This document shows positions 3,174 through 17,924 of a stretch of DNA of 64,000 nt, piece by piece. This stretch comes from Candidatus Calditenuis fumarioli (GTDB taxonomy: Archaea; Thermoproteota; Nitrososphaeria_A; Caldarchaeales; Calditenuaceae). The stretch covers positions 320,001 through 384,000 of the forward strand of contig JANVYR010000001.1 in NCBI GenBank assembly GCA_030059665.1. The letters run 5' to 3'. The stretch's first letter is position 1, and the number at the start of each line of letters is the position of its first letter. The position numbers were made by a program, and so were the translations under genes. Below the pieces are notes generated by a model. That model searched no databases, was not told the DNA's origin, and was given only the letters and a program-made list of their open reading frames with translations.

Positions 3174-3866
3174 TCACCTCCTCAGGACAGCCCTCTCTAG
3201 CGCGCAGAGGGCCCTCGATACCGCCACCCAGGCATCTAGCCTCTGGTCGTGGAGCTTCACCCTGACGTCGGCGGCGCTCATCACCTCCTCGCTGAAGTCT
3301 CCGTGGGGGAAGCAACCGACCACCAGTATCACTCCGCCGTCTCCCATCAACTCCGCCAGCCTCTCTTCCCTCAGCTCCTCGCCCGACTCGTGAAGGAGCA
3401 CCACCGGATTCCTCCCCAGCGCCTCAAGGACCTCCCGGAAGCTCCTCCGCTCCACCTCGAGCAGGACCTTCCCCTCCTCGGTCACGACCCTGCCGTCCCT
3501 GAAGAGGGCCTCCATCAGCCCCTTGAACCGGTCGTAGACCCGCGGCAACCGGGTCGAGGGGTCTATCCTGATCCAGTAGCCCGAGATCGTGTGGACGTGG
3601 ACCGACATCAGGCCTGCGAGGTTCAGCGGAGACCCGAGGGCCTCGAGCAGTGTGACGTGGACTATGTCCGGCCTGCCCCTCTTCTCCGCATTAGAGAGCT
3701 TCCTCATCGCCCTGTGGTGGTACGAAGAGTCGAGGAGCGTCCACCTCGGAGACTTCCCCCGCCTGCGGCAGTAGGCCCTGACGTCGGGCTCCGACCAGAG
3801 CTCCGGAGGTATCAGCTCGAGCGACGCCTCCGCCAGCAGGAGCTTGACCGGTGGAACGGCAGCCAC
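3174..3866 (-). CDS. nep1: Nep1/Emg1 SSU rRNA pseudouridine N1-methyltransferase (SPOUT)
   Basis: LLAEASLELIP, LDSSYH, KRGRPDIVH, RLPRVYDRFKGLM, VGCFPHGDF. Confidence 0.93.
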   Translation of the reverse strand: MAAVPPVKLLLAEASLELIPPELWSEPDVRAYCRRRGKSPRWTLLDSSYHHRAMRKLSNAEKRGRPDIVHVTLLEALGSPLNLAGLMSVHVHTISGYWIRIDPSTRLPRVYDRFKGLMEALFRDGRVVTEEGKVLLEVERRSFREVLEALGRNPVVLLHESGEELREERLAELMGDGGVILVVGCFPHGDFSEEVMSAADVRVKLHDQRLDAWVAVSRALCALERAVLRR

Positions 3867-3986
3867 CCCACGTTTCAGAGAGTTCAGGCACCGCTAAAAC
3901 GGAACCGCCGTGAGCTTGCACGTCCAGCTCAGCACGTCAAAAACCTCTCATCGGAACCCTTTGGCCCTCAAACCCACGGGTAAAAA

Positions 3987-4077
3987 GGCGCTGATGAAGG
4001 TGATCTTGACGGGAAGGTTCTGGCCCTGATCGAGCTGCCGATCGCGGGGCTGATGTCGGAGGAACCGGTGGAGGTGA
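3987..4077 (+). repeat. Rearranged exact copy of two segments of the adenine deaminase gene
   Basis: 3987-4005 equals 48038-48056 (19 nt). 4005-4077 equals 48240-48312 (73 nt). Compared base by base. Confidence 0.92.
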
Positions 4078-4139
4078 ACAGTCTCTTCGAGTATCTAGAG
4101 ATGACGTAGCGTGTGTTCTTGTAAAGGGGAGGGTAGTCT

Positions 4140-4433
4140 ATGGCTCGCTCTAGGAGACCTTACGTAATCCTGAACACGGCCATGACGTTGGATGGCAAGA
4201 TAGCAACTAGGACGGGCGACTCGGAGATCTCTTGTATGGACGATAAAATCGAATTGCATAAGTTAAGGGCCTCGACTGACGCCGTAATGGTCGGGATAAA
4301 CACGGTCTTGGTTGATAACCCTCGCCTCTCGGTCAGGTATGTCGAGGGTAACCCAACACGGTCTCGGTTTACGACGTCACAGGTACGGTTGACAGCATCG
4401 TCATCTCCAAGTTCAAGAACAGGCAGGAGGTGA
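4140..4433 (+). pseudogene. N-terminal fragment of RibD-C/ArfC-type pyrimidine reductase
   Basis: RPYVILNTAMTLDGKIA...LRASTDAVMVGINTVLVDNPRL. Similarity ends at ~4350; has a good RBS (GGGGAGGG). Confidence 0.8.
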
Positions 4434-4612
4434 GCAACTTCACCAAGAGGCTCCTGAGCATCCCGTACGTCGAGCGGACCAACACCCACGTCGTCCTGAC
4501 GGTCGTGAAGGAGGACCCGAGGGGGCCGCTGCTGAAGGAGCTGGGGAGGGCCCTGCCGGGAAGGGAGAGGATGCCGGAGGAGCCGAGGGAGGAGGTGGGA
4601 GGTTACGGGTAA
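4352..4612 (+). pseudogene. C-terminal fragment of an Lrp/AsnC regulator (ligand-binding domain), no start codon
   Basis: Frame from 4352 reads PNTVSVYDVTGTVDSIVISKFKNRQEVSNFTKRLLSIPYVERTNTHVVLTVVKED, typical of archaeal Lrp C-domains. Confidence 0.7.
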
Positions 4613-4936
4613 GGAAGCCTAGATGGATGAAGGTAGAGATAGTCCAAAGGCATCCATTACAACCTATTCCCGAACGCGGCGTGAACCTGAGACGAAGGAG
4701 CGCCAGCAGGAGAAGAAAAGGGTGTAGAACTTGAGGAATTAGGTCATATGGCAACTCAAGAAAGGAAGAAAAGGGAGGGGTTGGATCGTTTGTTTCGTCA
4801 GCTTCTGGCGTCCTCGGTCGTTTGGGGCCCGGGCCGGGGTTAAAATTGAGTGGGTTACGCCTCGCCGCCTCGCGGCGGGGGCGGTTTTACCCGTGAAGTA
4901 CCCGAACCCGGGTCTCCCCCGCCGAGGCGCCCGGCC

Positions 4937-5800
4937 CTAGCCCTGTCGCTGAGGAGCTGGTATGCCCTCGGACCTCTCGTGGGTCTCCTGCCTAAATCTG
5001 AACATCAGCCATATCCTGAACGCTGTCGCCTCTTCGTCCCGCTGTGTCGGTTTATCGTTTATCAGCGCCATCGTCAATCTGTTCAATGCCTTTCTCGCCA
5101 CGTGGCTGAACTTCTTGTTCTTTTTCGACTTCCTGCTTTTTCTGAACAGTCCCAAATATGCCCGAACTTTCGCGAAAGGCTTCCTGAAGTCAACGTATGT
5201 CAGCAACTCAGCCAATGCTTCCCTTGCCATCAAATGGCCTTCGCCTGAAATCCCCAACTCCTCAGCAATGTAATCGAAATACGGATACCTTCTCCGAGCC
5301 TCCTCTACGATAACCTCGGCTAACATCCCCTTCTCCATCTGCGCCTGCCTCACCAGTCTTCTAAGACTCTCTTGTGCCACCGGAGATGCCGCCTTAAGCT
5401 GGTTCTCCAGCTGCTGCTTCGTCCTTTCGATCGACCTGTAGGTCGAGATCAACCTCCGCATCTCTAGGAAATTTTCGTCTACCCTTCGGTACCATTTGCA
5501 CTCAATGGTCATCATCGCTTTGATGTCGCTCTTCGTGGACTTAGGCAATCCCATCCTCTCTCTCATCTGCTTGACCAGACGCAATCGCCGAAGATAGTAG
5601 ACCTCCACTCCCTTCCTCAGTAATTGTATGAAGGAGTCCGTAAGCATCACCGGTATCGTATCGACATATACCCGATCGCCAGGTCCTGCTGGGATTTCCG
5701 CCGGATCATCGATATGTTTGAAGCTCTTGCCGTCAGTTGTATAGGTTATCCTAAATCCGCTTTCATCCTTCTTCCTGTGTACGTCGCAATAGAACCTCAT
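4937..5800 (-). CDS. IS110-family (DEDD/RuvC-like) transposase/recombinase-like protein
   Basis: N-terminal YCDVH, then VYVDT, KSTKSD (KTDxxD-like), coiled coil ending LENQL, GISG, KVRAYLGL and ARKAL; same order as in IS110 proteins. Confidence 0.7.
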   Translation of the reverse strand: MRFYCDVHRKKDESGFRITYTTDGKSFKHIDDPAEIPAGPGDRVYVDTIPVMLTDSFIQLLRKGVEVYYLRRLRLVKQMRERMGLPKSTKSDIKAMMTIECKWYRRVDENFLEMRRLISTYRSIERTKQQLENQLKAASPVAQESLRRLVRQAQMEKGMLAEVIVEEARRRYPYFDYIAEELGISGEGHLMAREALAELLTYVDFRKPFAKVRAYLGLFRKSRKSKKNKKFSHVARKALNRLTMALINDKPTQRDEEATAFRIWLMFRFRQETHERSEGIPAPQRQG

Positions 5801-6099
5801 CTCACATCACCGTATTTCAGCAACGTAAACAGGAGCACCAATACCAGCATCACCTGTAGTAGCGTCAGAAGAACCATTGCTGGCGTTAGCGGTAGCCTCG
5901 TCGAGACTACGGCCACCATTAGCGCCATAGCTATCGTCCTTTTCTTCCAGAGCGACCAGGGCCATCGAGGCCTCCTCTCCCCCCTGACCTCGAGGATCTC
6001 CAGGACCCTCGGGGCGGGATACTTCCCAACCCCGAGGACCCTTGGAGGTGGGAGGGATAGGGGAGATACCTCGATGACCCTCGGTTCGTTGTCGGTCAT
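5797..6099 (-). CDS. Small membrane protein, hypothetical
   Basis: RBS GAGGTGA; hydrophobic C-terminal half; stop codon overlaps the next ATG (ATGA). Confidence 0.6.
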   Translation of the reverse strand: MTDNEPRVIEVSPLSLPPPRVLGVGKYPAPRVLEILEVRGERRPRWPWSLWKKRTIAMALMVAVVSTRLPLTPAMVLLTLLQVMLVLVLLFTLLKYGDVR

Positions 6100-6110
6100 C
6101 GCCGATCACC

Positions 6111-6458
6111 TCAATCTATCGGTATTGGGGGGATGGGTTCGTCCCCCCAATACATCTGGTCTTCGTCCTCTACCCACCCTTCCTCGTCTTCCTCCCATTC
6201 CTCTTCGAATTCTTCCTCCTCCCATTCATCCTCGAAGTCCTCTTCCTCCTCCCACTCCTCTTCTTCCCATTCCGCCTTGAAGGTCGTCTGTTTCGTTTCC
6301 TCGTAGCTGATGTATGTCAATTGGATATACCTCGTCCTGAATCTGCGCCTCCTGGGCTTTGTCCTCAGCATTGTAGAGCATAGCGGGCATCGAACGTCGT
6401 CTGTTTCGATGAACTGTTGGCATCTGCTGCAGAATCGGCGGTTGTCGCCGTATCTCAA
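6111..6458 (-). CDS. Zinc-finger protein (CxxC-x9-CxxC) with acidic Trp-rich tail
   Basis: Likely TTG start at 6458 after GGAGGGG. FCSRC...RCPLC followed by EWEEEEWEEEEDFEDEWEEEE. The 6791 start of the ORF track runs through hairpin DNA. Confidence 0.65.
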   Translation of the reverse strand: MRYGDNRRFCSRCQQFIETDDVRCPLCSTMLRTKPRRRRFRTRYIQLTYISYEETKQTTFKAEWEEEEWEEEEDFEDEWEEEEFEEEWEEDEEGWVEDEDQMYWGDEPIPPIPID

Positions 6459-6479
6459 AGCTCTTCCCCCTCCCCTGAT

Positions 6480-6830
6480 GGCTAACCCCCCGTCATAGGC
6501 CCCCGGGCCAGGGACCGTGATGGGTGGGGCATGGGACCCAGTCGTCGTTCGTCCGGGGAGCCCAACCCCCGGCGGGTCGGCTCGTCGGTCGTCCACAACC
6601 CTGCCTGCACCCGAGGGGACGCCGCCCTTCCCCCCGGGGAGGCTCCTCCTACCGGGCATGTTCCCACCCGGAGAAGAGACGCCCCCACCGGGACCCCGAG
6701 GAGTGGAAACTCCCCGGGGCGTTCGACAGGCGAATCCCCGGGAATGCTCCCGGGGTTGGACTCTCCCCTCGGGACCCCCAACCCGAGCCACCAGGCCCGG
6801 GCTGGGGGCCCGAGCCCGGTGGCTTAAAAA
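6480..6830 (+). ncRNA. Candidate structured non-coding RNA or origin-like hairpin array
   Basis: Stems 6553-6558/6567-6572; 6694-6719 with GGAA tetraloop; perfect 8-bp stem 6736-6743/6748-6755; stem 6786-6792/6818-6824 before an A-run. Confidence 0.4.
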
Positions 6831-6872
6831 ATGATCAAACGGGTTGGGGGTTGTCGTCGTTCTGTCGGTAAA

Positions 6873-7106
6873 TCAGCCGAGGCTTCTGATGAGCAGCGGC
6901 AACAGTAGTGCCATCACCAGTAGTATTATCGGAGGTAGCAGGTCTATCGGCCACATCATCCCTTGCTTCCTAACGACCGCCCGCAGTTGTTTACCGCATC
7001 TCGAACAGCGTAGCGTCTTGGTACCATCTTTGCACTCCTCGCGGGCCTCTTCCCGCTCCTCCCGCTCCTCGATCTCCCGGGCCCCTGCCCGAGTGTCATG
7101 ACCGCT
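6873..7106 (-). pseudogene. Open frame with CxxC motif plus C-terminal TM helix, lacking an in-frame start (or 28-aa TM peptide from ATG 6959)
   Basis: Reads EECKDGTKTLRCSRCGKQLR...MMWPIDLLPPIILLVMALLLPLLIRSLG; no ATG/GTG/TTG before 6959. Confidence 0.35.
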
Positions 7107-7320
7107 TCATCCCGGAGGTCGCCGCCCGAAACCTACGGCATAGGGGCCTTTCGGGCCTTCCCTCCTTCATGACACTCCCCGGGCTCCTCCGGGATTACCT
7201 GACTACGGGTTCCCCGGCGCAAGCCGGGTCCCGTCCCTCCCGGAGGCCCCCACCTCCCCCTCAGGGGCAAACCCCCGGGGGAGGAAAGGAGCCTCCCCCG
7301 GAGGCCGCCCTCAAGGGGTC
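7100..7320 (+). ncRNA. Candidate structured non-coding RNA
   Basis: CCGGC-GCAA-GCCGG (7214-7227) nested inside ACGGG/CCCGT; GGGG-CAAA-CCCC (7264-7275) nested inside longer G/C stems. Confidence 0.35.
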
Positions 7321-7450
7321 ATTGATGGGGAAGCAAAAAATGGAGGGAAATGGTTTACGGGAGGAGCGGAGTCGTGGGATTATCGAGGATCATCTGAGGT
7401 CGTCGGACGGTGCGTGGCCTCGTCGCCCTACCTCGTCCCCATCCCCGGGC

Positions 7451-7711
7451 TCATATGAACCCGAGGAGGAGCGGGACGACGAGGTGGGTGAACACCAACG
7501 CCAGAACGCCGCCTATCGCCAGCCTGATTCCGTACCCCTCCTGGCGGAAACCGATCGCCAGGAGGAGTCCGCCGAGGATCATCGCTATACCAAGCGCGTC
7601 GATGATCGGCGTCGCCACCTCGAACAGCGTCAACATCACCTGTTTGATGACTTGAGCAACCTTGCTGCCCACCTCGCTGGCCGAGATCAGAGCCGTGACC
7701 AGGGAGATCAT
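7451..7711 (-). CDS. VirB2/TrbC/CedA1-like two-TM pilin-type protein
   Basis: 86 aa from ATG 7711 with G-rich RBS. Amphipathic N-helix, then two hydrophobic helices separated by a short charged loop (GFRQEGYG). Confidence 0.55.
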   Translation of the reverse strand: MISLVTALISASEVGSKVAQVIKQVMLTLFEVATPIIDALGIAMILGGLLLAIGFRQEGYGIRLAIGGVLALVFTHLVVPLLLGFI

Positions 7712-8002
7712 CGGTCCCCCACCCCCACCCCTCGCCACCGCACGGTCCAGGGGCCTTCTTCGCCTCTCCCGCGTGCCGGACCACGCGGGGTCGGGCTCCG
7801 GCCCCCTTCACTCCGTGGGCTGGCTCGGGGCACGGTAATCGCCCCGACTCCCTTCGACGGGAGGACAAGTAGGGGAAAGAAAGGGGGTGAGGTTGCGCTT
7901 GCATCGATCATCAGCTGGAGTCTTCATCCTCGGCTTTGAGCGTCGGTGGCCACCGGCCCGGACTCTCCCGGTCGGAGGGACGCGGGCTTGGCGAGCTGGG
8001 GG

Positions 8003-9592
8003 TTATTCGCCCCAGCCTGCGACCGTCGTGTCCCTCCTTGTCAGTGGGGTCACCTTCATTACCCACCCCGGCCTAGACCACCCTGAGCGGGTGGGGTGGT
8101 CTGGCTCGGGGCGGGTTCGGGTGTCCCCGCCTCCGCGCCAAGCCTGTTCTTCATCCCCACCCTCTCGGGGTCCAGGCCGGGGCTTCGTCTTCGAGTATTG
8201 CAGCGGATTCCTGATCCCCTTAGGACACAGCTTACCGTCCTCTATGCAGAGTCCGTGGGCCTTCATCGTCTGGCAAGAGGGCGGTTTGTATTTTATCCGA
8301 GATCCCCTCTCGCCGGCGATATGCTCTATCTGGTACCTGGCTATCTTCTCGTCGAAGTCAGGCCTCTCCTGTAGCATCGCCAATATGTCCTCCTTGGAGT
8401 ACCCACGGTTTATCATGAAGGCCGTTATCGAGAACAGCTCCGCATGCGATGCCTCAGAAATCCTCGCCCTTATCGCCTTCATGCACGGCGGCCAGTCCTC
8501 GCTCGTCGTCTCCGTCGTCTCAACGTACCGGCTTCTTACCCTTATCAGCTCTTTGAGTGTGTCCTCCGCGGCCTCACGGAGAACGTCGGGTAGTAAATTA
8601 ATCTTCGGCCTTACTCCCTCGAATCTGGCGAACGCCTCGGCGATCCTCTCCCTCGCCAGCCGGGCCAGCTCCGCCTTCGTGAGATGAACATAGCCTCTGT
8701 GCACCGTCCGGTTTACGAGGCGCCACTCGGGGTTCCGCAAAAGGTTCCTCGCGGCCGTCAAGTAGTCAGCCAGCGGAACCTTGTAGTCGTAGCCCTCGAT
8801 CTCCGAGGGCTCGGCGTCCAGTTTCGTCCTCCTTATCAGTTCCCTGAACGTCTCCTCGTCCTCGGCCAGCATCTGCCGCTCTATTCGGGAGGCCTCGGCG
8901 AGCGCCCAGCGCTTCAGCAACCAATCGTCGTTAATAGCTAAGCAGATCACCTTTGCGACGATGAAGCTCAGCGCCTCGGTAAGGGGATCGTCCAGAGACT
9001 GGACGATCCCCCGCTCCCCGCGTTGTAACGCGTCGATTAACCTCTCTTTTGCTCTTGTCGCTGTCGCCTCGTCGACGTCGGCGACGTTCCAGGCTTCGAT
9101 TAATTGGCGGTATTCGTCCAAATATTGGAATTTGCTGAGCGTTTGAAGGGTGATAACTAGACCCCTCGGTTTAACCGTCTCCTGCCGCGCTTCCTTTTCT
9201 TCCTTTTGCGCTACCTCTTCGGACTTCGACGCTAACAGCTTTCGTCTCAAAATCTCGATCGCCTCGTCGTCCAGCTCCGCTAGGACCTGCTCGACCTTCT
9301 GCCTTCTCATCTCTTCAAACTCCTCCTCGTTCGGTTCTCTCGGCCTATCCCATCGATACATGGGATAGGCCCGTTTGAAGCTCTCCAGAAGCTCGTCGTA
9401 GGTCAGCGACGGGTCGTAGTGACCCAACCAGTCGATCTCTAGTGGGTCGGCGCGGGGGTTGAACTCCATGAAACGCCTTATCAATGCCCTCAGCGTTACG
9501 TAGTCCGACTTGCCGTACCTGTCGTAGATCTGTCTGTGGACTCTCTTCGTGACCTCCTCAAGGATTTCCTCATCGACCGTCATCCGAACCAC
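8003..9592 (-). CDS. priL: DNA primase large subunit (PriL) with ~140-aa N-terminal extension
   Basis: SFIVAK...KRWALAEA, WRLVNRTVHRGYV, Fe-S ligands WPPC, PPSC, GLC and C, and PDFDEKIARYQIEHIAG. Confidence 0.88.
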   Translation of the reverse strand: MVRMTVDEEILEEVTKRVHRQIYDRYGKSDYVTLRALIRRFMEFNPRADPLEIDWLGHYDPSLTYDELLESFKRAYPMYRWDRPREPNEEEFEEMRRQKVEQVLAELDDEAIEILRRKLLASKSEEVAQKEEKEARQETVKPRGLVITLQTLSKFQYLDEYRQLIEAWNVADVDEATATRAKERLIDALQRGERGIVQSLDDPLTEALSFIVAKVICLAINDDWLLKRWALAEASRIERQMLAEDEETFRELIRRTKLDAEPSEIEGYDYKVPLADYLTAARNLLRNPEWRLVNRTVHRGYVHLTKAELARLARERIAEAFARFEGVRPKINLLPDVLREAAEDTLKELIRVRSRYVETTETTSEDWPPCMKAIRARISEASHAELFSITAFMINRGYSKEDILAMLQERPDFDEKIARYQIEHIAGERGSRIKYKPPSCQTMKAHGLCIEDGKLCPKGIRNPLQYSKTKPRPGPREGGDEEQAWRGGGDTRTRPEPDHPTRSGWSRPGWVMKVTPLTRRDTTVAGWGE

Positions 9593-9734
9593 CTCTCGAG
9601 GAGCATCGGTACGTCAGTAACCGCTACCGTCCCCTCCACCCTCTCCCGGAACCCTCGCGGCCCCTCCTCCGGGCTCTCGCCCGGGCCCCTCGCCCAAAGG
9701 GCGGGGTATGTACCCACCACGGGGTAAATCGGGG

Positions 9735-11420
9735 CTATCGCGGCAGGAGAGGGAGGAGCTTCCGGTAGCGATCATCCACGAGGAGAACCAGAGCGTTATC
9801 TTCGGGACCCCTGATCGCCCTCCCGGCGGCCTGAACCGCGGAGTAGACCGCAGGGAGGACGAGGCCGTGGAGCCTCGCAGAATCCTCGTCCCCTAACAGC
9901 TCCTTCAGTCTCCTCAGCAGCTTCTCCCTCCTCGGCGTGGGTGCGGCGAAAGGCACCCCTATCAGCAGCACGAGCTCAGCAGATAGGTCAATCCCTTCGG
10001 CGAGCCTGCCGTTGAAGACGCTGACCAGCGCTTTGGAGTCCATCTCGAAGGCTCTGGCGACCGCTTCAACCTCCTCCTGCGTCATACCTTGCTTCTCGGC
10101 CAGGACCTCTGCCTCGGCCCTTTTCAGCACCTCCTCGAGGACCTCGTGGCTCGGCAGGAAGACGAGGGACCTCCTCCCTGCTACGAGCTTCAGCAGCCAG
10201 GCGGCGTCCGAGTAGAGCTTCTCGTCCCGTTTCTCGAACTTCGTCGTCAAACCCTTCACCACGGCCGCGCTCAGGTTGTCTCCGAATGGCCATCCGGCCC
10301 TCAGCAACGTCATCTCCCGGCCTACCAGCCTTTCCAGAAGCTCCGCGTTGACCGTCGCGCTCATCGTGACCGTCGCCCTCCACTTGTCGTAGACGGCCTC
10401 GAGCACTTCTTTGGGGTCAGCCATAGCCTCCAGCCTCAGGGACCTCCCCTCCCTCACCAGTAGGGGTCTGGAGCCCCCGAGGCTCGCCTTGAAGTCGGCT
10501 ACCGTAAGCACATGGCTCGCCGGAGCGAGGTTCTCCCTAAGCTTAAGCTCCTGTATCTCGAAGCCCGCCTCTCGGAGCTCCGTGTAAGACGGTAATACGT
10601 CATCGACCTCCGCTTCGCCGTCTCCGGGAAGCAATGACTCGTAGTGGTTGGCGGCCCTCTCAAGCTCTGATGAGATCTCGTTAAACCCGTACTTCCTTGC
10701 CTCCCTTGCCGCCCGCTTCAGCGTCCTCAGACTGATGGAGTCCTTGACCATCGACAGCGCCTCACTGACAACGTGCTGTGCCTCGTCCAGAACCAGTATC
10801 GTCCTCTCCTTCGACCAGCGCCATTTGGCCAGAAGCCATCCGAGGAATCCGAGTTGCCTGTGGGTAGCGACCAACCCCCGTGCGGTCGGCATCGAGATAG
10901 TGAGTACCTCATAGGGGCACGTCAACGTCCTCCGTCCCAAGTCCTTGAGTTCGCTGACCGTCATCGGCCTCCCCACCGCCCGAGGTTTCCCGGGCCAGTA
11001 GGGGCATCTGTGGGCGTATCTGGTCGCCCTGCACGCGGCGTTGAACCGTCTCTGATCTATTTGGGCTATTACCTCGTGAAGACACAGTAGCTTCCTCCCG
11101 AAGAGCGGCAGCATGCCGGTTTCCAGCGAGACATGTCTAACTTGCGAAGCAGTCCTCGTAAGCCAAAGCACCCTCAGATTGTTCTCCTCCGCGTACTTGG
11201 CTACGGCGGCGTAGACCGCGGCGGTCTTACCCAGACCGGTGGGCGCCTCGACGACCACGTCCCTGTTGCCGTCGCTCAGCAGTTCGTAGAGCCTGTTGGC
11301 GAGGTCGGCTTGGTATTTCCTCGTCGTCGGATGCGGGAAGTGCCTCTTCAACGCAGCCGTCAGCTGGACGTCCTCTTCGAGGTCAACCACCCTGACCTTC
11401 CCCGGCTGGGGGATAGACAC
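9735..11420 (-). CDS. XPD/Rad3/DinG-family Fe-S SF2 helicase
   Basis: EAPTGLGKT, four-Cys Fe-S region ending CPYE, LDEAQH, MSAT, LAEGIDL and QAAGRAIR. Confidence 0.9.
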   Translation of the reverse strand: MSIPQPGKVRVVDLEEDVQLTAALKRHFPHPTTRKYQADLANRLYELLSDGNRDVVVEAPTGLGKTAAVYAAVAKYAEENNLRVLWLTRTASQVRHVSLETGMLPLFGRKLLCLHEVIAQIDQRRFNAACRATRYAHRCPYWPGKPRAVGRPMTVSELKDLGRRTLTCPYEVLTISMPTARGLVATHRQLGFLGWLLAKWRWSKERTILVLDEAQHVVSEALSMVKDSISLRTLKRAAREARKYGFNEISSELERAANHYESLLPGDGEAEVDDVLPSYTELREAGFEIQELKLRENLAPASHVLTVADFKASLGGSRPLLVREGRSLRLEAMADPKEVLEAVYDKWRATVTMSATVNAELLERLVGREMTLLRAGWPFGDNLSAAVVKGLTTKFEKRDEKLYSDAAWLLKLVAGRRSLVFLPSHEVLEEVLKRAEAEVLAEKQGMTQEEVEAVARAFEMDSKALVSVFNGRLAEGIDLSAELVLLIGVPFAAPTPRREKLLRRLKELLGDEDSARLHGLVLPAVYSAVQAAGRAIRGPEDNALVLLVDDRYRKLLPLLPR

Positions 11421-11509
11421 AGGGCAGGGGCCTTAGCCCCTGCTAGCCCACTCGGCGCTCCCCTCCAAAGGAGGGTGCGTTTATCCCGCCAGCCTATGGG
11501 GGTCTCACC

Positions 11510-11752
11510 TCACAGGTATCCGAAAATCTTTAGCAGTATCGCGCTGATCAACGTCGTCACCCACAGCCAGAAATAGCGATCTATCCGCGACTCGAGCCTT
11601 TCGAACCTCCTGTCTATGTTCTCCAGTATCTTCCTGTGCTCCTCGACGATCACCTCGAGCTTTGCGATCCTCTCAGCCAACTCCATCACCATTCGTGTAA
11701 GCTCCTCCGGCGTTAATGGGTCTCCGGCCTGATTTATCTCTTCTGACCTCAC
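11510..11752 (-). CDS. Small coiled-coil protein with C-terminal TM anchor
   Basis: Heptad region IAKLEVIVEE...FERLESRID followed by YFWLWVTTLISAILL; start overlaps the upstream stop. This architecture is common in archaeal viruses and plasmids. Confidence 0.65.
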   Translation of the reverse strand: MRSEEINQAGDPLTPEELTRMVMELAERIAKLEVIVEEHRKILENIDRRFERLESRIDRYFWLWVTTLISAILLKIFGYL

Positions 11753-12480
11753 CTGCCATCACCCCTGTGAGACTCGTAGTGCTTCTTCAGCTCCTCCTCA
11801 GAGGGGCAGAGGAGGCCGCAGCTGGGGCAGAAGTAACCCTGTCCCGTGCTGACGACCTCCCCCACCCCCCGGAGGAATGTCCACTCCCATCTGCATGACG
11901 CCGGATGCTTCTCAGCGACGTGCGCCGTTGCTTCAGCTAGGGTCCCGAACCCTGCCCCGCAGTAGGGGCAGAGCCAGGACCCGTCCTTGTTCTCGAAGAA
12001 CGTCTTCAGCTCCCCCACCCAGGCCACCTTGACCCGGGCGGGGGTGGTCTCGTCAACGTCGGCCGGGTGCCTCCCTCCCAGCCAGCCCCGTCTTATGACG
12101 ACGGGGCGGGCCGAAAGGGAGTACCTCTCCAGAACGTCGGCACACCCTTTGCAGAGGGGCCCTGCGTATGAGGGCAGGGCCGCGGGAGCCCCGCACCTCG
12201 CGCAGAACCCCTCTACCCTTTTCGATTCGGCGGGTACCTCATCGACCTTTGGCTTGCACTCCGCCTGCTTCAGCTTCAGGGCCTCCGTGAGCTTGGCCGA
12301 CGCTCCGCAGCGTGTGCATCGTAGCATGCTGATCGCCTCGCCCGGCACAACCACTTCTTCGACCTCGTGCTCCCCGAGGGGGAAGGTCCTGTGCCTCTCT
12401 CCCTCAGGGGTTTCGACTTGTTCCTTTTGCACCTTCGTCTCCTCTTCCTCGAACCTTTCCTCTTCCTCCTCGAGCCCCAA
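11749..12480 (-). CDS. Multi-zinc-finger protein (CxxC pairs and two C2H2-like fingers); probably the frameshifted C-terminus of the upstream ATPase
   Basis: CTRC, CARC, CKGC, CPYC...H...H, CPSC...HYESH. Frame is open from 12657. Confidence 0.7.
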   Translation of the reverse strand: MGLEEEEERFEEEETKVQKEQVETPEGERHRTFPLGEHEVEEVVVPGEAISMLRCTRCGASAKLTEALKLKQAECKPKVDEVPAESKRVEGFCARCGAPAALPSYAGPLCKGCADVLERYSLSARPVVIRRGWLGGRHPADVDETTPARVKVAWVGELKTFFENKDGSWLCPYCGAGFGTLAEATAHVAEKHPASCRWEWTFLRGVGEVVSTGQGYFCPSCGLLCPSEEELKKHYESHRGDGR

Positions 12481-12587
12481 CCCCTCGACCCCCTGCTCAG
12501 GGGCCTCGGAGAGGGGCTCCTCGGACTCGACGTCCTCCTCCAGTCTCAGCTCGACCCTCCCGGGGCCTGCCTCCGACCGCCGCTCGA

Positions 12588-14276
12588 TTACACGAAAACC
12601 CCTCCCCCTCTCGCGGCGATCAGGGCAGACCCTTTCGGGGTCTCCTCTTCGACCTTCTCAGCCTCCTCAACAGTCACCTCCTCTCCCTCTTCGGTCTCCT
12701 CCTCGACAGTCATCTCAGCCCCCTCCTCGGCTTTCCCCCACGGAAGGCGCCACGGGATTGGCCACGTCCCCGTTGCCGTGCGGACCAATAGTAGTGACGC
12801 CGTCCCGCGGCTGGGGGCCTCGGAGGGAGTGGTTGGAGTGCTGACATCGGCTTCCTCTTCGAAGTCTTCGTCTTCCTCCAGCTTCAGCTCCACGGAGCCT
12901 GTAGGCTCCGGGGGCTGGGCGGGCTCCCCACCTTTTTCAGCCTCCTCGACCCGCCCCTCGACCTCAACCCCCTCCGGCAGGGAGGGGGTGGGGGTCTCTG
13001 GAGCGGACACCTCTCCCTCCTCGACCTCCTCACCTTGCTCCTCAGCCCTTACTTCCTCAGTTACTGTTGGCTTCGTGAGCATAAGCTTGATCGGCTTAGG
13101 TTTCGGTAATCGTCTTAGATGGAGTCTGCGGTGATCGTAGATGATAAGCTTCGCCTTAATCAGCTTCTTCCACATCTTCTCCGCCTCCTCGAGGCTCGCC
13201 CTGAAGAGGAACCTCTCTAGGACGAACCTCGGGAGGCTGTCGGGGGAAGTGACGACGATAGCTCCCACGTCTTTCGTTATTGCTATCGGCATCAGCTCGG
13301 GATCGGGGCATATTAGAACCACCCCGACCCCAAAACCTCTCAACTCATAGACGATCCGCTCTCCTACCGTCGGTGGTTCGTCAGGAGTTCTCGGCCTGAT
13401 GTAGTTCTGCGCCTCCTCAGCAACTATCAACTCTCCCAGCCTCGCCTTTAGCCCCCCTTTCAGCGCGTCCTTGTACTTCCTCACTAGGATCGCGATCGCA
13501 TATGCAGACTTCAGGTATACTGAGGGGAGTTGGCTGAGGTCGTAGACGACGACGGAGTCGCTTCCTCTGACGTTCACCGCAGGCCTCTCCTCGTCTATCA
13601 GCAACACGTAAAGCCTCCGGATAAGCGCCAGGTACATGTTGGCTTCAGCGTATCTCCTTTCGATGCTCGCGAGGTCGGCGGCCCTCGTCAGCTCGCGTAT
13701 TACTTCGGACGTCGTCGGAATCCCCTTCTCGTAGAGTTTGACCATGGTCCTCAGCAGAAGCGTCGCGCTCGCCGGCGACACCTCCGCCACGTCTTTGCTC
13801 ATCTCGCGTATCATCTCCACGGCGTAAAGCGCCTTCTCCTCCGCAGTTTCTCCGGGGACGTCCCAGATATTGATCTTCCTTACCACAGACGCTCCCTTGA
13901 GGTAGGAAACGTACTCGCCCTTCCAGTCGATGACCGTCATTTTGATCCCCTTTTTGACCGCCTTAGCAATTACCTCCTTCGCAACCGTGGTCTTCCCCGA
14001 CCCCGTCGGCCCCAGCACGACCATGTGTCGTGCCAAGGCCGACAGGGGCACCACCCCCAGCACCCTCCTAGCCCTCAATGCCCGGAGGAAGAGGAGGGCA
14101 GGGGTGATGGTCGTTATCGCCGCGATCGCTGCGATTGTTGCGATTGGTACTACATTGACCCTCGGCAGTAGCTCGGGTACCCCTTGGACGATTCCGTACT
14201 TCGCCCAGTCCCTCATACCCTCCTGTACCACGTGCAGGAGGGCAAGGGGAACGTCTATCTCGTAGACGGCGACCAC
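12588..14276 (-). CDS. HerA/VirB4/TraG-like (DUF87-type) P-loop ATPase with N-terminal TM segment and acidic Pro-rich tail
   Basis: HMVVLGPTGSGKTT, IDWKGEY, Walker B IVAEEAQNY. Start uncertain (14276 or 14216). Confidence 0.82.
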   Translation of the reverse strand: MVAVYEIDVPLALLHVVQEGMRDWAKYGIVQGVPELLPRVNVVPIATIAAIAAITTITPALLFLRALRARRVLGVVPLSALARHMVVLGPTGSGKTTVAKEVIAKAVKKGIKMTVIDWKGEYVSYLKGASVVRKINIWDVPGETAEEKALYAVEMIREMSKDVAEVSPASATLLLRTMVKLYEKGIPTTSEVIRELTRAADLASIERRYAEANMYLALIRRLYVLLIDEERPAVNVRGSDSVVVYDLSQLPSVYLKSAYAIAILVRKYKDALKGGLKARLGELIVAEEAQNYIRPRTPDEPPTVGERIVYELRGFGVGVVLICPDPELMPIAITKDVGAIVVTSPDSLPRFVLERFLFRASLEEAEKMWKKLIKAKLIIYDHRRLHLRRLPKPKPIKLMLTKPTVTEEVRAEEQGEEVEEGEVSAPETPTPSLPEGVEVEGRVEEAEKGGEPAQPPEPTGSVELKLEEDEDFEEEADVSTPTTPSEAPSRGTASLLLVRTATGTWPIPWRLPWGKAEEGAEMTVEEETEEGEEVTVEEAEKVEEETPKGSALIAARGGGVFV

Positions 14277-14969
14277 CTCCGTTACATACCCAGCCTCGGC
14301 TACTACAGGATACCGGAAATCGACGTCCCGCTCGATTACCTGCTATCGAGGATAAAGGGTAGCGGGATGGATACGGAGAGCATCGACCACGTCTATGATT
14401 ATTTCGGCAACAGGAGGATCCTGATCGAGGTCCCGGAGGAGGAGATAGAGAGGGAGATGGAGCAGAACAGGCTCAGGAAAGAATGGGAAGCCAAGATCGC
14501 CGAAAGACTCCAGAAGTGCACGCTCCTCTGGCAAAGCGATAAGGTGCGGGCCTACCTGCTCGACGACGAGGAGCTCGCCGGGGTGTTTTTAGATGCGGTA
14601 AGCGTTCAGATGGTGAAGGATCTGGGCAGACTCATCGTTATCGCCGGGCCATATTTTGACGAGCCATACAGGGTCGCCTCCCTGAGCATCCATATGCCGA
14701 CCAAGGTCCTCGCCGCGAAATCTTTGCTTGAGAGGAGAGGAGTTCCGGGAACTCTCACGGTAAAGAACGAGGGGGTGCCGGGACCGAAATACCTGATCAG
14801 GCTTACCTTTAGACACCTCGACCCGCTCGGATACTGCACGCTCTACCTCGATCCGGACAAGAAATGCGTAGAGATGGCACCCAAGGCGAGGGTCATCTAC
14901 GAGGACGGGAAGCTCGTGCTGATAGACGACGAAGCGGTGGAGGAGCTGATGAGGGAGAGGGGAGCTTAG
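14184..14969 (+). CDS. Hypothetical protein (true start uncertain, possibly ~14367)
   Basis: Long ORF with protein-like composition; no motif recognised. Confidence 0.6.
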   Translation: MDDSVLRPVPHTLLYHVQEGKGNVYLVDGDHLRYIPSLGYYRIPEIDVPLDYLLSRIKGSGMDTESIDHVYDYFGNRRILIEVPEEEIEREMEQNRLRKEWEAKIAERLQKCTLLWQSDKVRAYLLDDEELAGVFLDAVSVQMVKDLGRLIVIAGPYFDEPYRVASLSIHMPTKVLAAKSLLERRGVPGTLTVKNEGVPGPKYLIRLTFRHLDPLGYCTLYLDPDKKCVEMAPKARVIYEDGKLVLIDDEAVEELMRERGA

Positions 14970-15008
14970 GCCCAGCCCGTATTTATTCCTCGTTTCAGTT
15001 TTTATTTC

Positions 15009-15812
15009 GTGATGATCCGCCTACCTGTCCAGTACTGGAGATTCTTGATCAGGTCATTTCTCGACGAAGGCGCAGACCGCGTCTTTTATGATCAGGGCAG
15101 GCTCCAATCCCTCAGCGTAGACAGAGTCTCCCTGATCAGAGCTTCTATCCACGACCATGACTGTGGCCGTATGGAACTCGACCTCGACAAGCCGAACGAA
15201 CTGCTGAAGAAGGCCCGTGTTAAAAGAGGCTATATGACGGTAAGGAGGATCGGCGAAGGTAAGGAAGAGGAGGAGGTAGAGGTAAGGATAACGGGAGACC
15301 AATGCCTGACGACAACGTTCAAATATAAGAGAGAGGTCGGGTCATCTTTCAATCCCGACGTCACGAGGTTGAACTTTACAGACGGATTCAGGATAGGAGC
15401 TGAGGCTTTAGCCCGCACATGCGAGGGCTTGAAGGACTGTGATATCATGTTTTTATATGTGGGGTCTAAGCTGTTTGTGGGAGGCAGACTGTTTGAAAGC
15501 CAACTAAGGTTCACCACGATCCCCACCGTTGCAGGTAACGGCTCGTTCTCGGCATTTGAGCCAAGCAGGTTGTGCAGGTTCTTGAGGAGGATAAGCGAGT
15601 TCTCCAGCGTCCTAACCGTCAGGCTCAAGACGGACGGCCCCATCTACATCCACGCTCCGACACCGTATTTCGACGTCGAGTTTATGCAGGCCCCGCGTGC
15701 CATCGCTTCCGACGACGTCAAGCTCCTGAAGGAGGTTCTAATTCAGGAAGGGGAGGCTCAGGCTATACCCGTCCTTGAGCAGTTGGTGGAGGCTAAACCA
15801 CAGACCGGATGA
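15009..15812 (+). CDS. Divergent PCNA-like sliding clamp
   Basis: LSVDRVSL (MDxSHVxL-like), ELDLDKPNELLKK, VRLKTDGPIYI and EFMQAPR match PCNA landmarks; ~35-aa C-terminal extension. Confidence 0.7.
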   Translation: MMIRLPVQYWRFLIRSFLDEGADRVFYDQGRLQSLSVDRVSLIRASIHDHDCGRMELDLDKPNELLKKARVKRGYMTVRRIGEGKEEEEVEVRITGDQCLTTTFKYKREVGSSFNPDVTRLNFTDGFRIGAEALARTCEGLKDCDIMFLYVGSKLFVGGRLFESQLRFTTIPTVAGNGSFSAFEPSRLCRFLRRISEFSSVLTVRLKTDGPIYIHAPTPYFDVEFMQAPRAIASDDVKLLKEVLIQEGEAQAIPVLEQLVEAKPQTG

Positions 15813-15973
15813 TGGGTTTTTACAGGCTCAGGGTTCGCATGGATCTGATCGGAGAGGCCCGGGACTCACCCGTCGCACCCGGAACGGCAGGAAACGGTCA
15901 AGTCTATGACCAATCTCAAAAATGTTTACCGGGTGAGGAAGGATGAGGGGCTTCAGGACTTGGATCCGATTGA

Positions 15974-16150
15974 AACGAGAACGGGTGCCTCCTCGACCCC
16001 TTCTGCGGAAGCGCCACCATCCCCATCGAGACAGCGCTCTACGCGATGCGGGTTCCGCCAAACGCCTACAGGCGGAGGGAGGAGATGCTGGTCTTCCGGC
16101 TCAAATTCATCGAGCAGGAGGCCCTTGAGGAGGCGTTGGCAAGGCTTAGG
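15974..16150 (+). pseudogene. Internal fragment of a Trm14/RlmL-type RNA methyltransferase
   Basis: Reads LLDPFCGSATIPIETAL (motif I) right after an in-frame TGA at 15971; runs in frame into the ParB-domain gene. Confidence 0.6.
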
Positions 16151-16180
16151 GTAAAATTGAGGTCGTCGCGACCCCTCCCG

Positions 16181-16609
16181 ATGGACCTGCTCGAGCTGAG
16201 GCCGAGGCTGGTGAGGCTCGACCAGCTGAGGGAGCACGAGCAGCACATCCCAGAGCACCTGGAGGAGCTGCTTCAGGAGATCCTCAGGGACGGGGTGCTG
16301 AAGAGGCCGATACTCGTGGACGAGAGGACGATGATCATCATCGACGGCCACCACAGGTACAACTGCATGAAGCGCCTCGGCAAGAGGTACATCCCGGCCT
16401 ACCTCATCGACTACATGAGGGAGGAGATCGTGGTGGAGCCCTGGGACGGGAAACCGCCGGTCACGAAGGAGGACGTGATCAGGGCCGGTCTTACGGGGAT
16501 GAGGCTCCCGCCCAAGTCCTCGAAGCACATGGTCAGGATAGGGGGAGAGCTCCATCACGTGACGTACATCGAGAGGGAGAACCCGACCCCGCTGGACCAG
16601 ATACCCTGA
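16181..16609 (+). CDS. ParB/Srx-fold protein, SerK-like
   Basis: LREHEQ, RPILVD, IIDGHHR, RLG.RYIPAYLIDY. Start placed at ATG 16181. Confidence 0.8.
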   Translation: MDLLELRPRLVRLDQLREHEQHIPEHLEELLQEILRDGVLKRPILVDERTMIIIDGHHRYNCMKRLGKRYIPAYLIDYMREEIVVEPWDGKPPVTKEDVIRAGLTGMRLPPKSSKHMVRIGGELHHVTYIERENPTPLDQIP

Positions 16610-16616
16610 GCGGGTC

Positions 16617-17714
16617 TCAGCTGATGCTCTTGACCGCCTCCCTCAGCTCTTCCGCGTTCCTCACGAGGATTATGCCGTTCCGCGCCACGAGGTCCCTGTA
16701 CTGCTCGACCTTCTCCCTGAGGTCCGCCATCATGTCCCTGAGGACCTCGAAGAGGTACTGCTTGATCTCGCCGCTCAGCATCCTGCCAGAGCCGTACTCC
16801 TCTCTTATCCTCTCCAGCTCCCTGTCGTTCATCAGGACGAAGCGGAGTATCTGGTAGGGAACGTCAACTTCCAGGTCCGCGCCCAGCTTCCTGTGGACCT
16901 CTATCGGCTCCCTCCCTCCTGAGAAGGCCTTGAAGACCTTCCTCCTGAGCTCGGCCATGTCGTCCTCCGGCAGGAAGATCGCCGAGAGAGGCTCGCTCTT
17001 GCTCATCTTCCCCTCACCCTTCAGGCTCGGTACGTCCCTGATGTAGGCCCCGATGATCGGCCTGAAGTCGAAGTGAGGCGTCCTCCTGACGTAGTCCCTC
17101 GCCAGCCTGAGGTGCGGGTCCTGGTCCAGCCCGACCGGGATCACTCCTGGAAGGCCCTGGAAGGCGAGCTGGGGGAAGAGCACGTCGCCTATCTGGTAGA
17201 GGCTCGAGACGATCCTCGATGGCTCCGCGTTGCCGTAAACGGCCCTGAACTCGTTGAGCGTGATCTCCCTCGCGGCGTCCGCGGCTATCCTGTGGACGTC
17301 TATGTTGTCCGACTGGAAGTAGAAGACCGTCCTCTCGGGGTCTATTCCCAGCGCCAGATACGTGGGGATGTGGTACTCCAGCGCTATCCTCCTGCCGTCC
17401 TTGAGGCTGACGTTCCTCGTCGCCAGCGACTCGAGGTCCGCGACCAGCAGGACCGTGAACCTCGCCCGCTCGGCGAAGCACCTCACCGACTCGATCACGG
17501 CCATGGTTCCCAGGTGGATCCTCTCGGAGGAGGGCATGATTCCGGTCAGCACGTAGTAGTTGGAGGTCCTGAGGGCCTCGAGGAGCTCCTCCTTGGTCCT
17601 CGCGGAGAAGATTATCCTGCGCCTCACGTACGGGTGGTTCAGCGGAAGCTCTGAGGGTTCGAGCTCTGTCAGGCCGAACTCCTCGAGCAGCTTCTGCTCC
17701 CTGGTTCCCGCCAC
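16617..17714 (-). CDS. trpS: Tryptophanyl-tRNA synthetase
   Basis: TGIMPS...IHLG, PVGLDQDPH, GKMSKS. Start probably GTG 17714 rather than 17945. Confidence 0.9.
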   Translation of the reverse strand: MAGTREQKLLEEFGLTELEPSELPLNHPYVRRRIIFSARTKEELLEALRTSNYYVLTGIMPSSERIHLGTMAVIESVRCFAERARFTVLLVADLESLATRNVSLKDGRRIALEYHIPTYLALGIDPERTVFYFQSDNIDVHRIAADAAREITLNEFRAVYGNAEPSRIVSSLYQIGDVLFPQLAFQGLPGVIPVGLDQDPHLRLARDYVRRTPHFDFRPIIGAYIRDVPSLKGEGKMSKSEPLSAIFLPEDDMAELRRKVFKAFSGGREPIEVHRKLGADLEVDVPYQILRFVLMNDRELERIREEYGSGRMLSGEIKQYLFEVLRDMMADLREKVEQYRDLVARNGIILVRNAEELREAVKSIS

Positions 17715-17924
17715 AATACCGGATCCCTCGCGTCGGTGCAACATCTCCTGGATAATAAACCTCGTGAAATGGGATCGGGATAGGACCGGCATTCCCTGCA
17801 GCTGGACTGCTCGACGTGATGGGTGGGGCCGATGCGAAACGCTGTCCACGAGCTGATTCCTGACGGCCGGAGGGAGAACGGGGATGGGGTTTTTAGAACC
17901 GTTAAGCTCCACGGGAAGAAAGAC

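Follow-up and report, generated by a model that had tools for sequence, protein, structure and literature searches.

A probable RNA-guided, IS110/IS1111-like element with plasmid-like cargo in the archaeon Candidatus Calditenuis fumarioli

RNA-guided recombination by IS110 insertion sequences (IS) is currently known from bacterial elements and is under development as a genome-writing tool. In IS1111 elements the seekRNA lies downstream of the transposase gene and matches the target twice, once on each strand, the two matches overlapping (10.1101/2024.04.26.591405), and bacterial IS110 elements grow to ~100 kb, with cargo and flank-derived ends, through half-matches (Hu et al., bioRxiv 2026, 10.64898/2026.08.14.744561); the text of the latter preprint mentions no archaeal case (text count for 'archaea', 0). 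Here we have analysed a stretch of 64,000 nucleotides (the window; G000:C1:320001-384000) from Candidatus Calditenuis fumarioli, an archaeon of hot springs, whose genome of 1.57 Mb is assembled in 3 contigs and has ~63% GC. The DNA at window positions 3986-16151 is probably an integrated, cargo-carrying member of an unannotated archaeal family of IS110/IS1111-like RNA-guided elements. A preliminary description of this DNA had spoken of an undescribed class of element, which is too strong a term given the cargo-bearing IS110 elements and IS1111 seekRNAs already known in bacteria.

The window family resembles the IS110/IS1111 elements (IS621, ISCro4, ISEc11) in the overall fold of its recombinase, with a RuvC-like domain, a coiled coil and a helical RNA-binding domain, in its multi-copy occurrence and in its lack of terminal inverted repeats; as in IS1111, a structured non-coding RNA lies downstream of the gene, and two short segments of it match opposite target strands and overlap at the core. 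It differs from them in having no Pfam IS110 match and no conserved catalytic serine or beta-hairpin, one programmable loop with no donor guide found, a guide and target of its own for nearly each copy, an archaeal host and a conserved 10-kb cargo. The likeness to the expanded IS110 loci of bacteria extends to a size continuum from ~1.3 kb to tens of kilobases, extended non-coding ends homologous to the chromosome, growth by half-matches, plasmid-like cargo and the lack of any other integrase. The bacterial cargo, however, consists largely of opportunistically acquired plasmid DNA and resistance genes, whereas the window-type cargo is a module of PriL, XPD, ATPase, zinc-finger and pilin-like genes that is syntenic across three Caldarchaeales families and whose PriL forms its own clade; this cargo therefore looks like the element's own backbone.

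The tigRNAs of TIGR-Tas systems use two guides that address both DNA strands. TasR and Nop5 resemble the window recombinase in their domains, which are RuvC-like at the N-terminus, followed by a coiled coil and, at the C-terminus, by an all-helical Nop-like domain that lacks a serine beta-sheet. TasR systems, however, have spacer arrays and are not known to be mobile, and Nop5 guides RNA methylation, whereas the window family shows transposon behaviour in its many copies, its junction cores and its empty sites. In an IS110/Nop5 preprint, archaeal IS110 recombinases were found by profile hidden Markov models (HMMs) and regarded as imports from bacteria; the window family may have been missed by that survey because it has no match to the Pfam IS110 domains. 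For the cargo, the closest parallel is with archaeal integrated plasmids, integrative and conjugative elements (ICEs) and the Ced/Ted systems (PMC6563490; PMC9905601), which likewise combine a membrane-anchored VirB4/VirD4/CedD-like ATPase beside a small two-helix membrane protein with chromosomal integration and no relaxase. The window element is unlike them in lacking a tyrosine integrase, a tRNA att site and a VirB6/CedA-like polytopic protein, and its replication genes are PriL, PCNA and XPD as against primpol, MCM or Rep. The 2019 survey of Thaumarchaeota and Ca. Caldarchaeum subterraneum by Krupovic et al. (PMC6563490) reports only CalSub-E1 and CalSub-Pro for the latter species, and PriL, XPD and IS110 go unmentioned there.

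If our reading is correct, the locus points to a recombinase family of archaeal hyperthermophiles that is invisible to profile searches, and an RNA-guided recombinase can serve as the integration module of a conserved plasmid-like replicon whose replication genes are unusual (PriL, PCNA-fold clamp, XPD-like helicase), an arrangement that integrase-based surveys of archaeal mobile elements would overlook. Its simple RNA, with one loop and copy-specific guides, would offer many natural guide-target pairs from which targeting rules could be read. The family also bears on the proposed evolutionary link from IS110 to Nop5 and TIGR-Tas.

Insertion site and guide RNA

The island is a true insertion, absent from congeners, since the Nep1 and ParB_N/TrpRS blocks nearly adjoin in two genomes of the same genus (G002 and G005): they lie ~160 bp apart there and 12.3 kb apart in the window, with Nep1 80-81% and TrpRS 90-92% identical between the window and these genomes. 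Relative to the empty sites, for which the preliminary description had advised a search, the inserted DNA measures 12.17 kb. That description had set the boundaries at 4760-15830 and had seen broken host genes at both flanks; both points have to be revised, as the broken RibD, AsnC and methylase genes lie inside the insert and the resident flank genes Nep1 (preceded on the left by ETF genes) and the ParB_N-like gene (followed on the right by TrpRS) are both intact. The left junction aligns with the empty site ACCCATCTTAAAA of G002. On the right, base-level alignment with both congeners shows that homology resumes at the TATA-like box TTAAAATTGAG and that the true start of the ParB_N-like gene is the ATG at 16181; the right junction doubles as the TATA-like box of this gene. 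The reconstructed target, CACGGG-TAAAA-TTGAG (undivided form CACGGGTAAAATTGAG), lies in the Nep1/ParB_N intergenic promoter, and (GGG)TAAAA is now present at both edges of the insert.

Profile searches with Pfam, PHROG and NCBIfam matched no tyrosine/serine integrase, relaxase or capsid family in any scanned open reading frame (ORF), as had been anticipated from the sequence; no long att-type direct or inverted repeats occur around 3800-17000 except for low-complexity coding repeats, and no tRNA is near the island, the closest tRNAs being at 43.2 kb. A viral nature was considered and rejected, there being no capsid or packaging signature.

That the region is native chromosome, or an artefact of assembly or contamination, is highly improbable. 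Such a reading could invoke the XPD-like gene, which is the sole DEAD_2 gene of the genome, and the base composition, which departs from ~0.63 GC in three stretches only (0.51-0.58), making of the "compositionally distinct block" of the preliminary description a patchwork. It is contradicted by two congeners that lack the region at this site although their flanks are conserved, by PriL, a second copy belonging to an element-specific clade, and by the XPD-like gene, found in none of the 6 other genomes of the genus; as for contamination, the contig is 857 kb long and the arms hold 97-100% copies of other loci of the same genome. PriL and the PCNA-like gene are extra copies beside those of the host.

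The 3' untranslated region (UTR) of the recombinase gene encodes a candidate guide RNA (Table 1). Among 6 copies, this UTR is strongly conserved save for two segments of 15-19 nt, which face each other across a single internal loop, bordered by GC-rich stems that do not vary and by a closing hairpin; support for the structure comes from conservation and folding energy and not from covariation, because the stems are nearly invariant (a single compensatory pair). No Rfam family matches within 3800-16300. In the window the 5' side of the loop reads CACGGGUAAAA (encoded at 4885-4895) and the 3' side CUCAAUUUUA (4841-4850); one side equals CACGGGTAAAA and the other is complementary to TAAAATTGAG. 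The 11-mer CACGGGTAAAA occurs twice in the 1.57 Mb, in the loop (4885-4895, minus strand) and at the left junction (3975-3985), and the 10-mer TAAAATTGAG also occurs twice, in the loop (4841-4850) and at the right junction (16152-16161). Both guide-matched sites coincide exactly with the junctions located, independently, from the empty sites. An alternative pair of element ends, the conserved block from ~4758 and the PCNA stop at 15812, was ruled out by these guide matches and the empty sites. The U-rich end of the RNA, of which equivalents are present in copies of G024 (Ca. Caldarchaeum subterraneum) and G021, is probably a transcription terminator.

The same guide-flank rule is seen in short IS copies of the window genome and of two other genera. 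In the window genome, copy e232 has flank matches of 10 + 10 nt at junctions ~2.2 kb apart that share the core TTAT, and copy eC2_73 has a 14-nt guide match on one side. The Caldarchaeum-type RNA has another sequence and the same architecture; copies L026 and L028 of G024 match 9/9 on both sides, and in G016 the guides of L064 (9+9) and L067 (9+8) match their flanks. Control guides, reversed or taken from the wrong strand, seldom reach 9 nt. The junctions display short duplicated A/T cores (TTAA, TTAT, TAAAA). A cargo-bearing element in G021 has the loop sides CCAACCTTTAA and ATGTTATAAAA; G024 holds the undivided target of this element, CCAACCTTTATAACAT, exactly where homology to the G021 flank starts, and a full-length PCNA-like gene, recognised solely by its position and its ..YQAPRIE end, lies 278 bp beyond the other G021 junction, CCAACCTTTA. 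Judged from these sequence matches, the evidence for RNA-guided site choice by the IS110-like gene is strong, in keeping with the earlier proposal of a mobile element that dispenses with a tyrosine/serine integrase.

Recombinase

The AlphaFold2 (AF2) model of the recombinase (pLDDT 91.8) combines a RuvC-like N-terminal domain, a coiled coil and an all-helical Nop-like C-terminal domain, and Foldseek aligns it over its full length with IS621 (8wt6/8wt9), ISCro4 (9t56) and TasR (9mty), with E-values of 1e-6 to 1e-5, a probability of 1.0 and a TM-score of 0.6. Residues D6, E66, D92 and E109 are invariant across 38 homologues and are candidates for the acidic catalytic residues of the RuvC-like domain. 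This is a transposase-like multi-copy gene: the window genome has four distant copies, 31-34% identical, and matches number 81 in G016, 8 in G024 and 5 in G021; metagenomic homologues number in the hundreds. In G016 (L058-L073), where the matches, at least 81, are often fragmentary and come with at least three RNA subtypes, we observe a massive IS expansion that fragments the assembly.

Several observations weigh against the RNA-guided, IS110-like reading. The IS110-like identity given in the preliminary description stands for the fold and not for sequence families: the recombinase has no Pfam, NCBIfam or PHROG match at E<=0.1/0.01, including Pfam DEDD_Tnp_IS110 and Transposase_20, and the profile of the 38 homologues retrieved no IS110 chain among PDB sequences, only spurious coiled-coil matches. 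The 38 homologues have no conserved serine column where IS110 enzymes hold their nucleophile, no beta strand is modelled after residue 107 and no serine beta-hairpin appears, and the Lys-rich loop 216-232 of the modelled C-terminal domain is disordered; Y231 is found in 34 of the 38 homologues, but the window recombinase has F231. Each RNA has a single programmable loop, and the search for a donor guide gave no convincing candidate for the element's own joined ends: matches of at least 9 nt were the 9-mer TTTTACCCG in the guide loop, which reflects merely GGGTAAAA, common to both junctions, and two scattered 9-mers in coding DNA. Element ends differ between copies, and about half of the copies examined have no flank match, as is expected if guides or flanks changed after insertion. 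The guide-matched junctions of the G021 element are 116.7 kb apart (G021:C2:346800-463467); not all DNA between guide-matched junctions need be one functional element, and such a span may enclose much secondary material. Finally, in related loci of 20-34 kb, tblastn found no homologues of the 14184-14969 gene or of the PCNA-like gene beside the ATPase.

Because no conserved serine was found, the chemistry may differ from that of IS110, and catalysis by this protein is presumed. One could thus imagine a TasR-type RNA-guided nuclease in place of a recombinase: once DNA had been exchanged between cells, it would cut the unoccupied target, and homology-directed repair (homing) would copy the element in. 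The best structural matches include TasR (9mty), the two guides would pair with opposite strands as in TIGR-Tas systems, the C-terminal domain has neither the serine nor the beta-hairpin, well-preserved copies each carry a guide for their own site, and a Ced-like DNA-transfer ATPase is encoded in the element, all of which would suit homing; this reading nevertheless does not explain why dozens of copies, their guides all different, sit at unrelated sites, why short A/T cores are duplicated at the junctions or how non-homologous flank fragments came to be captured, and we rate it as rather improbable beside integration by an RNA-guided recombinase.

Cargo, related elements and a proposed mechanism

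The cargo belongs to the unit, because the right half of the guide finds its match 11.2 kb away from the RNA, beyond the cargo, and because short IS copies retain the 3' end of the PCNA-like gene. In the window genome, five IS copies of ~1.3 kb, encoding distant recombinase homologues, have two stretches in common: the DNA that directly follows the recombinase gene (window 4811-4940) and the terminal 70-100 bp of the PCNA-like gene (15719-15812), the latter a conserved "right end" that is repeated at at least 6 genome sites. The repeated unit of G024 is ~1.6 kb long and consists of the recombinase gene, the next ~150 bp on its downstream side and a divergent ORF of 134 aa with the end ..YQAPRIE, which aligns with the C-terminal half of the window PCNA-like protein. 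By their sequence, these short copies look like full elements from which the interior, between a recombinase end and a PCNA-like end, has been deleted. The contrary view, that recombinase and RNA are an ordinary small IS at the edge of an unrelated integrated plasmid or ICE whose cargo moves otherwise (homologous recombination, lost integrase), can draw on the proliferation of the recombinase family alone as 1.3-1.6 kb units, on the bacterial survey of large IS110 loci, which detected no whole-unit mobilisation above ~20 kb, and on the patchwork nature of the element arms. We consider it unlikely: the second guide half matches the far junction at a word unique in the genome outside the loop itself, the short copies carry a piece of the island's far end, no other integrase was found in the scanned ORFs, and the recombinase again lies 1.3-1.6 kb beyond PriL, at the element end, in G021, G030, G038 and G027.

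Cargo of this kind recurs in the order Caldarchaeales, formerly called Aigarchaeota. The gene order membrane protein-ATPase-zinc finger-XPD-PriL(-recombinase) is found in seven other genomes (G012, G021, G024, G030, G031, G038, G027), and a long PriL with an N-terminal extension is a patchy second copy in eight (G012, G016, G021, G024, G027, G030, G031, G038), all of which also hold a normal PriL of ~365 aa. In the tree against host copies, 8 of 9 element PriLs form a single clade (100/100 support) whatever the host family, and this clade is placed next to the host PriLs of the family to which the window genome belongs. The XPD-like gene is confined to element-bearing genomes in families f1 and f4. 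Homologues of the multi-zinc-finger protein lie between ATPase and helicase in G021, G030, G012 and G031, and the 95-aa membrane protein is kept beside the ATPase in related elements (40-53% identity).

The element PriL is a second copy, the host PriL being at C1:828 kb. Its NCBIfam match covers residues 176-474 (model positions 37-335 of 360), flanked by an N-terminal extension of ~140-175 aa, for which a search of a language-model atlas gave nothing usable, and by a C-terminal tail; the four C-terminal cysteines (Fe-S) are readable in PPCM..PSCQ..GLCI..KLCP. The modelled complex of this protein with the host PriS (28405-29583, minus) has an ipSAE of 0.87 against 0.00 for the best control, with at least 65% of contacts agreeing between runs, partner pLDDT of at least 72 and an interface at PriL residues 265-300; the mark applied is reached by 51 of 78 solved complexes and by 2 of 108 mismatched pairs. 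Because PriS-PriL complexes have already been solved, the model indicates likeness, that is a preserved interface, only.

The PCNA-like protein, called a divergent PCNA in the preliminary description, earns this name by its fold: its AF2 model (pLDDT 84) is a two-domain clamp whose top 50 PDB matches are all PCNA (best E 4e-15; TM-score 0.70-0.78 to archaeal and eukaryotic PCNAs). No Pfam (PCNA_N/PCNA_C), PHROG or NCBIfam family matches its sequence, and a whole-genome PCNA_C search returned the host gene at C1:737 kb only. The family is small, since an exhaustive HMMER search found only 6 relatives.

Taken together, these data suggest the following scheme. The recombinase gene and its ~125-nt structured RNA occupy one end of the element and the PCNA-fold gene the other, with a plasmid-like module in between that comprises the VirB2-like membrane protein, the CedD/HerA-type translocase, the zinc-finger protein, the XPD-like helicase and the long PriL. 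The single RNA loop would present two guides of ~10 nt that pair with opposite strands to the left and right of the A/T core, and the RNA-bound recombinase would join the element, probably in circular form, to the target, leaving the core on both sides of the insert; the predicted circle junction reads ..GGCTTAGGG-TAAAA-AGGCGCTG.., or in outward-facing form ..GGCAAGGCTTAGGG-TAAAA-AGGCGCTGATG... Imprecise events at half-matching sites would append host flank DNA to the arms, and internal deletions would yield the 1.3-1.6 kb IS copies with both ends. Once excised, the element may replicate by recruiting the host PriS and polymerase through its own PriL, PCNA-like clamp and helicase, and it may move from cell to cell by means of the ATPase and the pilin-like protein. 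A bolder interpretation is possible, though doubtful at present: a native archaeal IS110-like lineage without the serine module and of Nop5/TasR-like make-up would move DNA by a dual-guide RNA, would be a candidate for the "missing" archaeal IS110 relative ancestral to the Nop5 and TIGR-Tas types, and would provide the integrase function of a plasmid that replicates and transfers itself and uses its own PriL and PCNA to recruit the host primase.

Table 1. Features of the inserted DNA and its junctions (window coordinates; aa, amino acids).
Feature	Position	Strand	Basis or remarks
Left junction, host DNA: left target half + core CACGGG/TAAAA	3975-3985	+	upstream of Nep1 (3174-3866, minus)
Left arm, mosaic of captured host-derived pieces	3986-4757		profiles; identity to other loci
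Conserved RNA tail with U-rich tract (RNA sense ..CCCUCCCUUUUCUUCCUUUCUU)	4758-4812	-	kept in copies e606, eC2_50, e678
Candidate guide RNA (seeker/bridge-like), 3' UTR of recombinase gene	4813-4937	-	alignment and folds of 6 copies
IS110-like recombinase, 287 aa	4937-5800	-	AF2 model, Foldseek
100-aa protein, C-terminal transmembrane segment	5797-6099	-	ORF; no family match in library scans
Zn-ribbon protein, acidic W/E-rich tail	6111-6458	-	weak DZR/RpoP-like zinc ribbon match
GC-rich, hairpin-dense, mostly non-coding kilobase	6459-7450		no credible long ORF, no Rfam match
95-aa protein, two hydrophobic helices, candidate VirB2/TrbC-like pilin	7451-7738	-	synteny; language-model lead
Element PriL, complete primase large subunit	8003-9592	-	PF04104 9e-28; NCBIfam PriL 2.5e-57
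XPD/Rad3-like superfamily-2 helicase	9735-11420	-	Helicase_C_2 5e-21; DEAD_2 4e-8; rad3 8e-29
Multi-zinc-finger protein, C2H2-type and ribbon motifs	11749-12480	-	profile search
Membrane-anchored FtsK/HerA-superfamily ATPase, N-terminal transmembrane segment, acidic C-terminal tail	12588-14276	-	profiles
261-aa protein	14184-14969	+	no match in any profile library, no usable match in language-model atlas
PCNA-fold protein, 267 aa, helical C-terminal extension	15009-15812	+	AF2 model, structure search
Right arm	15813-16151		repeat module and methyltransferase fragment
Right junction, host DNA: core + right target half TAAAA/TTGAG	16152-16161	+	sequence comparison

Further genes, arms and neighbouring loci

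Most of the remaining gene assignments of the preliminary description (PriL, XPD helicase, HerA/VirB4-like ATPase, zinc-finger and small membrane proteins) are supported by the profile searches or the ORFs of Table 1. The ATPase, HerA/VirD4-like by its matches to DUF87 (1.7e-11) and TrwB_AAD_bind (3e-8), is closest in sequence to CedD, the DNA translocase of the Ced system (2e-23; 82.8 bits, the cut-off being 600), and to VirD4/VirB4 types; the CedD match and that to CedB (4e-5) are both far below the curated cut-offs. The protein belongs to the superfamily but is not an equivalog. No VirB6/CedA-like polytopic membrane protein is encoded in 3986-16151. The VirB2-like pilin remains a lead only, from TrbC/T4SS_pilin clusters that score 0.81-0.86 by language-model features.

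The XPD-like helicase has four cysteines in its DEAD_2 insert. Its gene, continuous in the window, is read as two pieces in four related elements (residues ~8-66 and ~65-561, with 56-74 bp between), at L017/L018/L019 (G021:C2:457288-458995, G030:C2:206286-207993, G012:C29:30849-32528) and at G017:C68:2755-4405; this split directly follows the Walker A region and might be due to a frameshift, to an intron-like sequence or to a small insertion.

At the other end of the cargo, the stop of the 100-aa protein gene overlaps the recombinase start (ATGA), and the upstream part of the long Zn-ribbon ORF (to 6791) is of low complexity and probably untranslated. The mostly non-coding kilobase that follows is a possible origin or regulatory region; between 6400 and 7500 there is no DNA similarity to related elements and tandem repeats are uninformative. 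Within this kilobase, a possible ORF for a 28-aa hydrophobic transmembrane peptide (6872-6958, minus) is followed by a T-rich stretch.

The left arm begins with a 73-bp exact (100%) copy (4005-4077) of window positions 48240-48312. There follow the 5' fragment of a RibD_C reductase gene (4140 to ~4355; profile positions 1-75 of 197), the 3' end of an Lrp/AsnC gene (4351-4613; AsnC_trans_reg 27-71 of 73), which is 98% identical over 4351-4614 to C1:631462-631725, and a "module A" (4614-4757) that is also found beside other IS copies. The right arm consists of a repeated module (15813-15964), common to copy e678 and to C2:284.9 kb, and of an internal fragment of a UPF0020-type methyltransferase gene (15965-16150; profile 30-65 of 197), 96.8% identical to C1:738002-738187. 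The RibD, AsnC and methylase pieces are captured cargo and not genes disrupted in place, because they lie within the inserted DNA and two of them are 97-98% copies of loci elsewhere in the genome. For the RibD_C fragment (4140-4355), tblastn found no other copy in the window genome; this may reflect capture in a different host or loss of the resident copy. The AsnC piece stops at TTACGGGTAA, where 8 nt form a half-match to the left guide, and the methylase source reads CTGAGGTC at the spot where the target reads TTGAGGTC; this pattern fits the growth by half-matches of bacterial IS110 loci.

Two other loci of the window genome are related to these arms. At G000:C2:284550-285009, a "module A" (like 4636-4754) is followed 238 bp further on by the right-arm module (like 15859-15964) with no recombinase between, which may be a remnant or a preferred landing sequence. 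At G000:C1:737192-738187, the host PCNA gene lies within ~0.5 kb of the very UPF0020 methyltransferase gene whose fragment, 96.8% identical, adjoins the PCNA-like gene of the element; the adjacency may be fortuitous or may be left over from an earlier residence.

In the related genomes, G021:C2:346800-463467 and G030:C2:96464-~212470 are collinear with the undivided G024 site, and two readings of this span are a giant expanded locus and a composite that carried host DNA along. In G021, a 479-bp repeat (L017:12986-13464) lies between the recombinase RNA and the junction; its copies in G024 (824066-824544, 129721-130135) and in G030 are 92-95% identical, and it is a separate small mobile or repeated element. 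Beyond the insertion in the window, the TrpRS ORF (16617-17945, minus) extends at its N-terminus 60-80 aa beyond the region matched in relatives, where these have stop codons, and sequence comparison suggests that the true TrpRS start is probably further downstream than the listed ORF start.

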